Shown here: positions 37,727 to 41,767 of the stretch, piece by piece
Numbering within the stretch: position 1 is the first letter of the stretch
Layout of the letters: each line of letters opens with the position of its first letter
NCBI GenBank assembly: GCA_963675785.1
Contig: OY776562.1
Span: 1,312,001 to 1,376,000 of the forward strand
From: Anaerolineae bacterium
GTDB taxonomy: Bacteria; Chloroflexota; Anaerolineae; UBA1429
Reading direction: 5' to 3'
Length of the DNA: 64,000 bases
Notes under the pieces: generated by a model
What the model was told of the DNA's origin: nothing
Seen by the model: the letters and a program-made list of their open reading frames with translations, nothing else
Databases searched by the model: none
Position numbers and translations under genes: made by a program

Positions 37727-39345
37727 TCAATCCCCTCGAATCTGTACATAAGCGGCGCCTCAAAACCCTCATCATTTACGAAAGCAACAGTCCCAAGATC
37801 TGCCCAGTTCCAAAGCCATTCGGCATTCTCATCGGCACTCACAATGCAGCCGTATGAATGGGCCTGGCCCACATACTGTGCCCAATCGACAGCACCGTTG
37901 GAAAGCCGCGGGAGAGCGTGAAAGCCATTCTCAGTGCCACCGGCCCAATAAAGCCCCAGCCACTTGGGCATCCAAATATTCCAGGTTGAGCCATATGCTT
38001 CTTCCATCTTGCTCTGTAGCGGATAGCGCCCAGCATTGGTGGGCGCAGAAGCTCGCCCAATCATAACCGACCACTCTTTGACAACAACATCATCCTCATA
38101 GACTTTGACCCAGAAATCGGCTAATGAAACCACGATCCGCGTAGAAGGGCAATAGGCATCGCGCACCGCAACGATGGCTGCCTGCACATCCGGATCGTCA
38201 GGGCAAACCTCGGCCAATTCCAGCACAGCATCTATAGCCACTTCCCAATCTTCGGCGTCGACGTTAGGATCGTCGCTCCAATCCGCTACAATGTTGGCAT
38301 AAGAATCGCATAGCATTGTAATAGTGTCTTTGTAATCACTATGCAGTTTTTCTACGCGCGTGAGCTTTTCAATGACAGTCTCCGAGTCATTCACCCAGTA
38401 GGCTTCAACACCCTCCATGTACAATTCGTGTACCCGGCGTACGTCCTGAACGCCTAAATGGTTCCCATCCAGGCGTACTGCCTCGTCCAACAACAGGTTG
38501 GCATCACTCAACTGGTTTTCGTCAATAAGCTCAAGGGCCTTTTCATAATAAGCATTGGCCAGTGCAGTACAAGCCTCATTATCATAGGGGGCAATCTCGC
38601 GAATCGCTTCAAGGGATGTGATGGCCGAATCCCAATCCGCCACCGTAATGCCCACATTCGCTCTGATCCAGAGATCCGCCGTCAGTTCATCAGTAGTAGG
38701 AGTAGGCGTTAGGTTGGGATCTTGCGTGGGTAACACTTCGGCCAGAGCAAAGGCGTAGCTCTGTCGATACGCCGAAAAACCCAACATCACGCCAGCGACA
38801 ACTATAACCACTGTGATAAAGGAAATAACTGGTGTGGCAATCTTGTCGAGACGTTCTCTCGTAAGCCATACATGCCACAAGCGGTGCCAAAAAGCGGCAA
38901 AACCAGCGCCGGCTTTTGCCAGCCAGCGGCCCAATGTGGTAGCGCTGCCCTGTGTAACCAGCCAGGCACGTTTTGCCCCACCACTCAAGGCTTCACGGCG
39001 TTCCTTGCGGCGCATCTGCGCAGCTTCAACTTCAAGTTCTTCACGCGTCTGGCCGCCTTGAGCAATCCGCTGTTCTTCAGCCCAACGCAATGCTTCGGCA
39101 ATACGGGGACTGTCGCGCAGCATGGTTTGCCCTTCGGTCAACAGCCGCACCGCCTCAGTGGGCGTTTCAGCACAATAAGCCAGCCAAAGCCAAGCCTCCT
39201 CACAGTCGGGGCATGTCTGAATCACACGGCGGAAAACCTCTGCCGCTTTTTGCGTGTCACCACCCTTGGCCAAAGAAACGCCTTCAGTGAGGTGGGACTC
39301 GATCAAATAGCGCATCCGAATCTCTTCTTGCCCGCTCGAAGCCAT
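37723..39345 (-). CDS. TPR + L,D-transpeptidase (YkuD) membrane protein
   Basis: N-terminal TPR (EEAWLWLA), one TM helix, C-terminal GFHALP...SYGC motif. Confidence 0.85.
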   Translation of the reverse strand: MASSGQEEIRMRYLIESHLTEGVSLAKGGDTQKAAEVFRRVIQTCPDCEEAWLWLAYCAETPTEAVRLLTEGQTMLRDSPRIAEALRWAEEQRIAQGGQTREELEVEAAQMRRKERREALSGGAKRAWLVTQGSATTLGRWLAKAGAGFAAFWHRLWHVWLTRERLDKIATPVISFITVVIVVAGVMLGFSAYRQSYAFALAEVLPTQDPNLTPTPTTDELTADLWIRANVGITVADWDSAITSLEAIREIAPYDNEACTALANAYYEKALELIDENQLSDANLLLDEAVRLDGNHLGVQDVRRVHELYMEGVEAYWVNDSETVIEKLTRVEKLHSDYKDTITMLCDSYANIVADWSDDPNVDAEDWEVAIDAVLELAEVCPDDPDVQAAIVAVRDAYCPSTRIVVSLADFWVKVYEDDVVVKEWSVMIGRASAPTNAGRYPLQSKMEEAYGSTWNIWMPKWLGLYWAGGTENGFHALPRLSNGAVDWAQYVGQAHSYGCIVSADENAEWLWNWADLGTVAFVNDEGFEAPLMYRFEGIE

Positions 39346-39997
39346 AGGAGATCTCCTTCTGCAGCGTAAACGCTGGCTCGATTATAGCATTGCACCACAC
39401 ACCCGGCAATAGCACCATGCCCGAAGCAGCCTGACTGAAGCGGCTAGAATATTGCTCAAAGTAGATTGCAAGTTTTCTTACCTAAAATGTAGTATAACGT
39501 TATTATCAGAATAAATAATGATAAAATATATAAATGCATATGATTGAATAAAGGAGTAAATTTCAAAGAATTGACAGTATTATCATCCGGATGCGCAAAG
39601 CTTGGTCAGTTACCCCAGCAAGCCAGAGCCCTTGGGAAAAACAGCTTTAGGCAACCAATGCGCTGACACATATAGAAGTATCTGTACACCGAAATATGCA
39701 AAATTCAGTAATCAAACAATCGAAAATCATGTTCGATTGTTCAACGATAGAAATCATGCTATATCACTAATAAATGATTAACATGACATCTAGAAATGAT
39801 TTTAATAGATTCATAACCTCGACACATAATGAAATAGACATCTGAAGAGAACCTACCTGGCTGAAATCAGAGTGAATAATCACTTTTATTTGGTGACAAC
39901 CCTGCAACATCGATGATCTAGACTCATTGTTAAAGCCATATGATGATCACTCTGCACAAACAAATCTGTTTAACCGTGGTTGAATCGAGAAGGTGCG

Positions 39998-40717
39998 ATG
40001 AATCCATCAGAGAAAAAAGCGGAACGCATCCTGCAAATCGAGCAATTGCTGCTGGCTTACCCCGAAGGACTCACTCAAGCGGAAATCGCCCGCCGCCTCA
40101 ACGTAGATCGTTCCACGATCAGTCGATATCTAGTTTCAATGCCTGCCCATATTTACATTGACGATCTAAACGGTAACCGCTGGAAAGTGGATAGAGAATC
40201 CTACCTGATCCATGTGCGCTTTACCCTCAATGAGGCACTGGCCATACACCTGGCTACACGCTTGCTAGCTACGCGGATGGAACGCCAGAATCCTCATGCT
40301 GCTTCTGGGCTGCGCAAACTGGCTGGTTCCTTGACTCTCCTAGCGCCGCGAATTAGTCAACACATGCAGCGTTCAGCAGACGTTATGGATGACCCCGGGC
40401 AACTCCAAGACCCAAATTTCTTGCGCACCTTGGAGGTTCTCACTCTGGCCTGGGCAGAGGGGCGCAAAACACAGGTTTGGCATCGTAGCGATGATGGTCA
40501 AGTCAGCGAATCTGTTTTTTCTCCCTATTTCATCGAACCGTACGCGGTCGGCCAGGCGGTGCATGTCATTGGCTGGCGAGAACCGCCTGAAGCCATTCGC
40601 ACCCCACACGGGGTGCGTGGATTGAAACCTCAACCGATCGTGCTACCGGCACTCACCTTTTATCGCACTCCACACAGGTATCCTGTGAGCAGACGGATGT
40701 CACCCAGTTCAGACTGA
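39998..40717 (+). pseudogene. HTH + WYL-domain transcriptional regulator, truncated by fusion to a CRISPR repeat
   Basis: LTQAEIARRLNVDRSTISRYL HTH; PYFIEPY..G.A.HVIG WYL core; after AIRT the frame runs into repeat-derived PHGVRGLK. Confidence 0.8.
40596..40694 (+). CRISPR. Type I-C-like CRISPR remnant: one repeat, one 33-nt spacer, one degenerate terminal repeat
   Basis: TTCGCACCCCACACGGGGTGCGTGGATTGAAAC (40596-40628); spacer 40629-40661; ATCGCACTCCACACAGG... from 40662. Confidence 0.82.
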
Positions 40718-41031
40718 GAATCCACTTTTTCCCCTGTGACGCAATGCAAAAAAGCCAGTGCCAAACGTCCCTAAAAATGTGTGGCAGAAGTCGTGAGTTT
40801 AGGTTCCTTGTGATTACTCGCCTGTATCTGTATCAAGATTGTTAACAGTTCATAGCTGTACTTGTGTCGTTAATATTATGTTTAGGGCTACTAGAAATAT
40901 AGGCCTAGTCATGAATAGGCACAGCATTCGGTGGTTCGATACGTTCGCTAAAATACATTCTTGCTTGCGGCACCCCTGCGAATTGTGCTAGTGTGGCGGC
41001 ATAAACGTGATACGAGGAGTGATAAATACGG

Positions 41032-41553
41032 ATGGTAGAAACAGATCGATTGATATTGCGCCCATTGCTGGCCGAGGAACTGGAGCTGATTGCAGCAGAT
41101 CCGCAGCAGCTGACGCGAAAAGCAGGCTTGACCGTCGAACCAGATTTGGCCGAAGAACCGGTGCCCCAAGCTATAGAATCCATGTTGGTTGGCTTGCGTG
41201 CTGCAGACGAGATCGATCGGCCCTGGCAGACTTTTTGGCTAATGCAGCTCAAACCTGATGGTCACGGCGTGGGTATGTTGGGGTTCAAAGGAGTGCCCAA
41301 CGAGAAAGGCGAAACAGAAGTGGGGTATGGCACTACTTTCGCCTATCGTGGAAAGGGCCTGATGAGTGAAGCGTTGGTGGGTTTGCTGGGTTGGGCTTTT
41401 GCCAGTGGGCGCTGCCAGGCAGTGACGGCCGAGACTCTGCCAGAGAACGGGGCATCTCAGCGGGTGTTAAGCAAGGCGGGCTTTGTGCGCGTGCCGGAAC
41501 ACACAGGCGAATGCTGGCTGTGGCGTTTGGAACGAGAGACATGGCGAGCGTGA
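41032..41553 (+). CDS. GNAT (RimJ/RimL) acetyltransferase
   Basis: ETDRLILRP, EVGYG...YRGKGLMSEA, N.ASQRVL.KAGF. Confidence 0.9.
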   Translation: MVETDRLILRPLLAEELELIAADPQQLTRKAGLTVEPDLAEEPVPQAIESMLVGLRAADEIDRPWQTFWLMQLKPDGHGVGMLGFKGVPNEKGETEVGYGTTFAYRGKGLMSEALVGLLGWAFASGRCQAVTAETLPENGASQRVLSKAGFVRVPEHTGECWLWRLERETWRA

Positions 41554-41554
41554 T

Positions 41555-41604
41555 GTTGATTTCCCCACTCCGTTTGGGCCGCAAATGAAGACGAGTTTTT
41601 TCAT
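41555..41604 (-). pseudogene. 5' remnant of a P-loop kinase/AAA gene
   Basis: RBS GAGG + MKKLVFICGPNGVGKST Walker A; the frame then runs antisense into the GNAT gene. Confidence 0.6.
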
Positions 41605-41767
41605 CAGGCGTTTCCTCGACATCGCATGAGCAATACACGAGAAACTTGGTTTATGCTTGAGCATTCACGAGTGCAGTTGTGGTCTTATTTTGCGCTGGCT
41701 ATCTTAACATAAAGCTGTTATACTATACATGCATCTTGATGATGCCTTATAGTCGAGGGAGTACACA

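Follow-up and report, generated by a model that had tools for sequence, protein, structure and literature searches.

The window, i.e. the whole 64,000-nt stretch of Anaerolineae bacterium DNA that was analysed, contains at 39998-40717 a regulator gene that runs directly into the remains of a CRISPR array. With high confidence, this site can be regarded as a scar left when at least about 9 kb, including a type I-C CRISPR-Cas system, were recently deleted. The regulator is truncated, the sequence that follows it is a CRISPR repeat, the junction between the two is a stretch of six bases, an intact allele occurs in close strains, and the type I-C genes are absent from the genome.

Truncation of the regulator

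The ORF list contained a chimeric ORF of 239 aa at 39998..40717 on the plus strand. Its native part (39998..40602, plus strand) comprises codons 1-201 of a gene for an HTH-WYL-WCX regulator plus the first two bases of its codon 202, and residues 203-239 result from read-through of a repeat, a spacer and a decayed repeat. A Pfam search of the 239-aa protein showed the N-terminal helix-turn-helix of such regulators at residues 9-48 (HTH_IclR, E = 6.9e-07; HTH_11, E = 4.9e-06; and others) and gave no match to WYL, at E up to 0.1, or to WCX. Residues 3-203 of the 325-aa protein encoded by G001, the closest relative, share 65% identity with the native part. Since the alignment ends at T202 while the G001 protein carries WYL at 146-213 and WCX at 243-317, the end of the WYL domain and the entire C-terminal WCX extension are missing from the window protein. 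WCX of the G039 protein is located at 243-320.

The codons at 40592-40603 read GCC ATT CGC ACC, i.e. A199-I-R-T202. T202 was invariant in an alignment of nine sequences (the window protein and eight homologs), and all eight homologs continued after it with F/L-K-x-E-R-I/L and then with a further 120-150 residues. The departure from the WYL motif after these codons, which had been described in the first-pass annotation of this DNA, was thereby borne out by the sequence and by every aligned homolog. The window protein continues instead with P-H-G-V-R-G-L-K, i.e. with the translated repeat, and its chimeric tail was matched by none of the eight homologs.

Homologs of the regulator run to about 325-350 residues, and the window ORF matches them through residue 202. 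The protein was found in 26 of 40 relatives' genomes (27 of 41 with its own genome), and all 20 relatives' matches with E < 1e-20 ended at query residue 200-204, inside open frames of 322-1250 aa. Eighty metagenome homolog loci, with 57-74% identity, were also compared. Residue 300 or beyond, of 325, was attained in 68 of them; in the other 12, the homolog ended at most 9 nt from the edge of the DNA available (11 loci) or 51 nt before it (one locus). A naturally short form conserved in relatives had been named beforehand as the observation that would speak against a deletion; such a form was seen in none of the 20 strong genome matches and in none of the 80 metagenome loci. A search of metagenome_contigs for a closer allele gave a best identity of 74%. 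The regulator would thus have lost its sensor and dimerisation part as well as its target operon, and the 239-aa ORF is better annotated as a truncated regulator or pseudogene.

The remaining repeats and spacer

From 40597 onwards, the ORF consists of a 32-nt palindrome-bearing repeat, TCGCACC...ATTGAAAC (40597-40628). This 32-mer is single copy in the window, where 0 of 100 shuffles matched, and in the one-contig genome of 3,217,757 bases. The full repeat is a 33-mer starting with G; the last intact repeat of the window (40596..40628, plus strand) has at its first position the T of codon ATT in place of this G. The sole remaining spacer, of 33 nt (40629..40661, plus strand), is placed between this repeat and a degenerate terminal, i.e. 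trailer-end, repeat (40662..40694, plus strand). In the latter, 20 of 33 positions are identical to the intact repeat and the 5' half is kept (13/16 identical, compared with 6/16 in the 3' half). Matches of at least 20/33 to the repeat were found at 33 of 3,217,725 plus-strand positions of the genome, with the two window copies included, and at 31 positions on the minus strand; because such matches are so rare genome-wide, the occurrence of the second copy at CRISPR spacing is not due to chance. The succession of a repeat opening with TCGCACC, a 33-nt spacer and a decayed repeat was thus recovered at 40597-40694 as first annotated. The regulator had also been described as fused into the last repeat of the array; the fusion to a repeat holds, but the repeat concerned is the last intact one, i.e. 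the penultimate, since a spacer and the degenerate terminal repeat follow.

Arrays of the same repeat family whose end was visible carried a further imperfect repeat at CRISPR spacing in 27 of 41 cases. When the first imperfect repeats of these 27 arrays were counted by hand, the 5' half was better kept in 17, equally kept in four and less well kept in six, and the decayed copy of the window has the look of a trailer-end repeat. The remaining spacer had no other match in its own genome, no exact match in viral_contigs and no blastn match in phages. The repeat was not found, with up to 3 mismatches, in the genomes of the 40 relatives, most of which are fragmented MAGs in which arrays are often unassembled, so that this negative carries little weight.

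With the exception of its first base, the repeat agrees with the type I-C family GTCGC...GCGTGGATTGAAAY and shares its internal 7-bp stem. Several repeat-spacer units and a leader, as belong to a type I-C array, are lacking: apart from a degenerate repeat, a single spacer and a single intact repeat are all that is left, and coding sequence stands where the leader belongs. The repeat-spacer-repeat stretch is better named an array remnant.

The intact allele in near-identical strains

Part of the stretch 39800-41200 was present in 18 public runs. All sampled words of this stretch occurred in three runs of one study, and fractions of 0.83 and 0.68 occurred in two runs of another. Four runs (X13, X16, X18 and X1) were compared with the window over 39300-41700 as Logan contigs, not as raw reads.

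In X16, a contig of 9101 nt (record 14) matched 40112-40602 with 1 mismatch and then extended for 8610 nt unlike the window. Contigs of X18 (record 22, 1106 nt) and X1 (record 2, 963 nt) likewise diverged from the window after 40602. In X18 and X1 the intact allele continues after this position with G CTC AAA GTC GAA CGG ATC, and the loose end reads in frame as T-L-K-V-E-R-I-E-R-I, i.e. as the motif of the homologs. At the other side, in record 15 of X16 and record 23 of X18, the repeat was followed by a spacer other than that of the window, then by the decayed repeat and by the window's trailer, which leads into the GNAT gene, and the right flank in these contigs matched the window from the repeat to 41211 or 41396. 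The decayed repeat at the array end of both runs has C, not T, at 40669, which is nearer to the consensus. An undeleted allele therefore exists, and both flanks of the junction match it.

Multi-spacer arrays of the same repeat were present in X16, X18 and X1. Ten repeat-to-repeat joints with differing letters between the repeats were observed across the three runs, nine of which resumed at 40597 with 34-37 letters in between, ending in G. The repeat in these arrays is preceded by G, whereas the window has T at 40596. The depth of the repeat bin was 3315 in X16 and 642 in X1, compared with 18-80 and 3-7, respectively, in the neighbouring bins. The X16 sample is a mixture, in which the intact-allele contig had a depth of 18.4 and the flanks 50-62. 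A joint from 40628 to 41354 in X1, found in one contig with a depth of 4.71, was attributed to a chimera or to the array of another organism and set aside. X16 and X18 carry another last spacer, in front of the terminal repeat, than the window does; therefore, either the array of the window was not identical to the arrays of these runs, or a unit was lost separately in a second event. The first-pass proposal that cas genes, the leader and nearly all of the array had been deleted is in agreement with the intact allele in X16, X18 and X1, with the cas content of the deleted segment deduced from relatives.

The deletion junction

The junction (40597..40602, plus strand) consists of the microhomology TCGCAC, which is found in regulator codons 200-202 and again at the 5' end of the CRISPR repeat. 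The base before it is T in the intact gene and G in the repeat, and the base after it is G in the gene and C in the repeat; the crossover lies within these six bases. A short identical stretch was thus present at both breakpoints, and one copy was retained. A deletion at a microhomology of about 7 nt had been proposed from the window alone; the microhomology stands, and its length, as given by comparison with the intact allele, is 6 nt.

CRISPR arrays are classic sites of assembly collapse, and a misjoining of the regulator to the array end via TCGCAC, with collapse of an intact locus, would give the same picture. Such an artefact is extremely improbable. An X13 contig of 11,578 nt (record 8) spans 39300-41700 and crosses the junction with 0 differences, and the depth of its repeat bin, 189.8, is the same as that of the flanks, i.e. 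that of a single copy, whereas depths in the array-bearing runs X16 and X1 are about 40- to 180-fold higher. No X13 contig departs from the window at 40602. Moreover, the genome is a single contig without any I-C cas gene, and the runs X14 and X15 also contain all sampled words of the stretch. Contigs served for this check, and the assembly may itself derive from X13, so that the check in this run is not fully independent. The junction was spanned in the manner that the first-pass annotation had called for, with contigs in place of raw reads.

Flanking regions

The trailer and intergenic DNA (40695..41031, no strand assigned) extends from the array end to a GNAT acetyltransferase gene (41032..41553, plus strand; Pfam Acetyltransf_3, E = 4.4e-22), and follows the array end without a break in contigs of X16 (record 15) and X18 (record 23). 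In Logan contigs, the GNAT gene adjoins the array end also in strains that retain the array; it is the original right-hand neighbour of the array. An Rfam search of 39300-41100 with E up to 1 gave no match. A partial copy of the trailer stretch 40715-40803 also occurs on the minus strand at C1:1,008,062-1,008,242, 344 kb away. This copy is made up of two segments of 43 and 50 nt, which are 93% and 90% identical and are separated by a 92-nt insert; it overlaps the start of a 651-aa ORF and is without an Rfam match.

The upstream intergenic region (39346..39997, no strand assigned) is AT-rich, with a GC content of 0.34-0.44 compared with 0.536 for the genome, and presumably comprises the putative promoter and operator of the regulator gene. 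A palindrome with 13-nt arms was found at 39715-39741, upstream of the gene. Two weak sigma-70-like sites at 39783-39830 were not in excess over shuffles, and the number of sites found in a promoter and terminator scan was likewise not above that in shuffles. At 39687-39799 the contigs of X16 and X18 are interrupted, and two variant contigs of 113/114 nt with raised depth span the palindrome-bearing stretch, which may reflect strain heterogeneity or a short repeated element upstream of the regulator.

The repeat family and the regulator in other genomes

A degenerate form of the repeat was used to scan genome_contigs, which yielded at least 123 stretches, and the DNA of 80 loci was examined. 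Among these 80 (of at least 123), an I-C-type Cas1, Cas2 or Cas4 was found upstream on the same strand in 43 of the 48 loci with at least 3 kb 5' of the first repeat. Cas7c was found in 37 and Cas8c in 23 of the 41 loci with at least 7 kb upstream (tblastn, 1e-8; the same 80 of at least 123). No cas match was observed downstream or on the opposite strand of the repeats in the 80 loci (of at least 123). The repeat family thus belongs with type I-C, as had been stated in the first-pass annotation, the 43 of 48 loci with I-C-like genes (among at least 123) pointing the same way. One locus of the family, in a Bellilinea sp. MAG (L144), has the regulator also at its head. The exact G-form of the window repeat was present in 26 copies in the array of L109, a MAG labelled Bacteroidales; this phylum label differs from those of the Anaerolineae- and Chloroflexia-labelled MAGs with similar repeats. 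As judged from these labels, the repeat family has a wide spread across phyla.

Two loci showed the gene order that the first-pass annotation had suggested looking for in relatives, i.e. WYL-cas3/5/8c/7(/4/1/2)-array. In G001 (contig C37), the regulator, Cas3 (HD and helicase), Cas5d, Csd1/Cas8c and Cas7 follow each other on the same strand up to the contig end. The metagenome locus L042 contains on one strand the regulator, Cas3, cas5c, cas8c, cas7, cas4, cas1, cas2, a leader of about 180 nt and the array. Its 33-nt repeat is identical to the window repeat at 27 of 33 positions, and two of the differences compensate each other as an A/T to T/A swap in the stem. At L042:8618-11854 the regulator and the type I-C Cas3 are read in one uninterrupted frame of 1078 aa, which is either a regulator-Cas3 fusion or the result of a missing stop codon.

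A close I-C Cas3, at least 45% identical to that of G001, was encoded next door to the regulator in seven of the 49 metagenome loci for which at least 1 kb of downstream DNA was available; the remaining 42 had a Cas3 of 26-45% identity (5 loci), a weak helicase match alone (14) or neither (23). Close homologs of the regulator stand at the head of type I-E operons at L029:10001-17085 (72% identity over residues 1-202) and in G008:C3 and G011:C3. The clade of this regulator moves between CRISPR subtypes, and its association with type I-C is not an exclusive one, a point that weighs against the proposed loss of a type I-C system.

Extent and consequences of the deletion

The ancestral order on the plus strand, as suggested by relatives, would have been the HTH-WYL-WCX regulator, cas3, cas5c, cas8c, cas7, cas4, cas1, cas2, leader, array, trailer and GNAT gene. 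In a single illegitimate recombination event, TCGCAC of regulator codons 200-202 would have been joined to TCGCAC at the opening of the last intact repeat of the array, by either microhomology-mediated end joining or replication slippage. The last WYL residues and WCX of the regulator, all cas genes, the leader and every repeat-spacer unit except the last would have been lost in this event. What is left is the 239-aa chimeric ORF, with its 202-aa native HTH part and 37 read-through residues, one spacer and the degenerate terminal repeat.

The extension of the X16 contig, 8.6 kb, is close to the distance of about 8.27 kb that separates the first repeat of L042 from the equivalent codon, which fits a contig ending at the array. 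The deletion accordingly amounts to about 8.6 kb in addition to all but one of the array units. Its gene content is that expected from more distant relatives, whose regulators are 55-74% identical. With 1 difference in 491 bases between the retained part and the intact allele, the deletion is recent, which also accounts for the chimeric frame being still open.

Cognate cas3, cas5c, cas8c, cas7, cas4, cas1 and cas2 genes are found neither upstream of the remnant in the window nor elsewhere in the genome. Csd1 (PF09709) had no match in the genome, but none of 14 control genomes was matched either, so this negative is carried by tblastn. A match to the Cas7c family was also not found in the genome, and tblastn with the I-C proteins of G001 detected the truncated regulator and a weak match to the I-E cas3, and nothing else. 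The genome search asked for by the first-pass annotation therefore turned up neither a further copy of the repeat nor Csd1/Cas8c or Cas7c. That annotation had further stated that no cas genes are present in the window; this is correct for the window, but elsewhere the genome carries a type I-E locus, to which the Cas5 and Cas1 matches belong. The remnant is very probably non-functional, because a Cas5c to process its transcript and an effector to be loaded with it are lacking, leader and promoter have been removed, and the regulator is left without its sensor part and its operon.

The frame is open for 239 aa and its HTH part is intact; relatives of the regulator head type I-E operons, and this genome has a type I-E locus. 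A selected arrangement, in which the short HTH protein and a one-spacer mini-array serve as a regulatory or decoy element, might be read from these features, but is highly unlikely. The fusion is absent from the 20 strong matches among 40 relatives and from the 80 metagenome loci, and with only 1 difference in 491 bases from the intact allele, the open frame indicates youth and not selection. In addition, the second repeat is degenerate, no Cas5c is available for cutting the repeat, and the I-E repeat is unrelated.

The type I-E locus and possible self-targeting

The type I-E locus is retained at C1:1,064,942-1,082,870, 280 kb upstream of the window site, and encodes Cas3, Cse1, Cse2, Cas7, Cas5, Cas6e and Cas1, with 146 repeats and 144 spacers. 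The array, at C1:1073434-1082870, has the repeat GTTTTCCCCACACCCGTGGGGATGGACCG and contains a 603-nt non-repeat stretch (1082056-1082658) before its last four to five units. A +2 frameshift divides the cas3 gene of this locus (C1:1064942-1067592) into two frames that overlap, one of 402 aa, with the HD and DEAD N-terminal part, and one of 507 aa, with the helicase C and Cas3_C parts; cas3 of four relatives is a single frame of 897-917 aa. In an alignment with the G008 protein, an apparent 2-nt insertion, TG, was located between ...LLAPFGV and GTIDQ..., as read from the assembly sequence alone.

One of the 144 I-E spacers (C1:1075294-1075325) matches the chromosome of the same organism at 32 of 32 positions (2673082-2673113). 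The self-target lies inside a TatD-family DNase gene (L108:8991-9788). Its 5' flank in spacer orientation is AGT, and AAG when shifted by one base. These features bear on the cause of the I-C deletion, which may have been CRISPR self-targeting: damage made by Cas3 would have been repaired via microhomology, and the product would have been selected as an escape from autoimmunity, in place of a spontaneous slip. The frameshift in the I-E cas3 and the fully matching I-E spacer in the same genome are in favour of such a course, which is nevertheless rather unlikely. The remaining I-C spacer has no self-match, the AGT flank of the I-E self-target may not license interference, as judged by the E. 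coli system, and microhomology deletions of six nt also arise without a nuclease.

Engineered chromosomal targeting by a type I system in Pectobacterium, in the part of the study by Vercoe et al. (2013; PMC3630108) drawn on here, was escaped by mutation of the cas operon, and deletions with a 7-nt homology at the joint were found. These escape mutants in the cas operon and the homology at the repair site are a further point for self-targeting as the cause. Common to that account and the window are the loss of the cas operon and the short homology at the joint, 6 nt in the window and 7 nt there. The targeting in that part of the study was, however, engineered and the deletions removed the target, whereas the event in the window is natural and removes the system itself.

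The state of the type I-E locus suggests that the lineage may have been under pressure to switch off CRISPR interference. A still bolder version, in which autoimmunity drives a full loss, with I-C excised by a Cas3-provoked and microhomology-repaired deletion and I-E independently silenced by the TG insertion in cas3 with its fully matching spacer against the organism's own tatD-family gene in place, is doubtful and less probable than self-targeting as the cause of the I-C deletion. If true, the window would be one half of a natural record of a two-hit escape from self-targeting that is still polymorphic among sampleable strains.

Comparison with known systems

The loss of CRISPR-Cas systems is thought to be frequent and is usually inferred from patterns of presence and absence. 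In the present case, each breakpoint is resolved, the microhomology of 6 nt can be seen, and near-identical strains of public runs still carry the intact allele. The locus lends itself as a natural case to the study of the manner and the causes of such losses, and of what a decapitated regulator and an orphan repeat-spacer unit do thereafter. The process is a known one, seen here in a well-resolved instance, and no new mechanism or system comes to light. A literature search of limited extent gave reports of remnant arrays and of escape deletions; it is not claimed that a fusion of a regulator to a repeat has never been described.

Remnant or orphan CRISPR arrays without cas genes have been reported in many genomes. 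Like these, the window contains repeat-spacer units without cognate cas genes. It differs from them in that the left breakpoint is resolved to six bases and lies inside a recognisable gene, and in that an undeleted allele is present in close strains.

The WYL-headed type I-C loci (L042, G001 C37 and L144) have a regulator of the same family, with 55-74% identity over residues 1-202, and a repeat of the same family, i.e. GTCGC, stem-loop and GCGTGGATTGAAAY, and the orientation of genes and repeats is the same as in the window. In contrast to these loci, the window lacks all that separates regulator codon 202 from the last intact repeat there.

WYL-domain transcription factors of defence systems, including regulators of CRISPR-Cas, are treated in the part of Makarova et al. 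(2014; PMC4012209) that was consulted, where sll7009 is cited as negatively regulating a type I-D system. The regulators described there resemble the window gene in their N-terminal winged HTH, their WYL sensor and their position at the head of a CRISPR-Cas operon. Compared with the regulators in that part of the article, the window copy is truncated, and lacks the end of WYL and the whole C-terminal extension.
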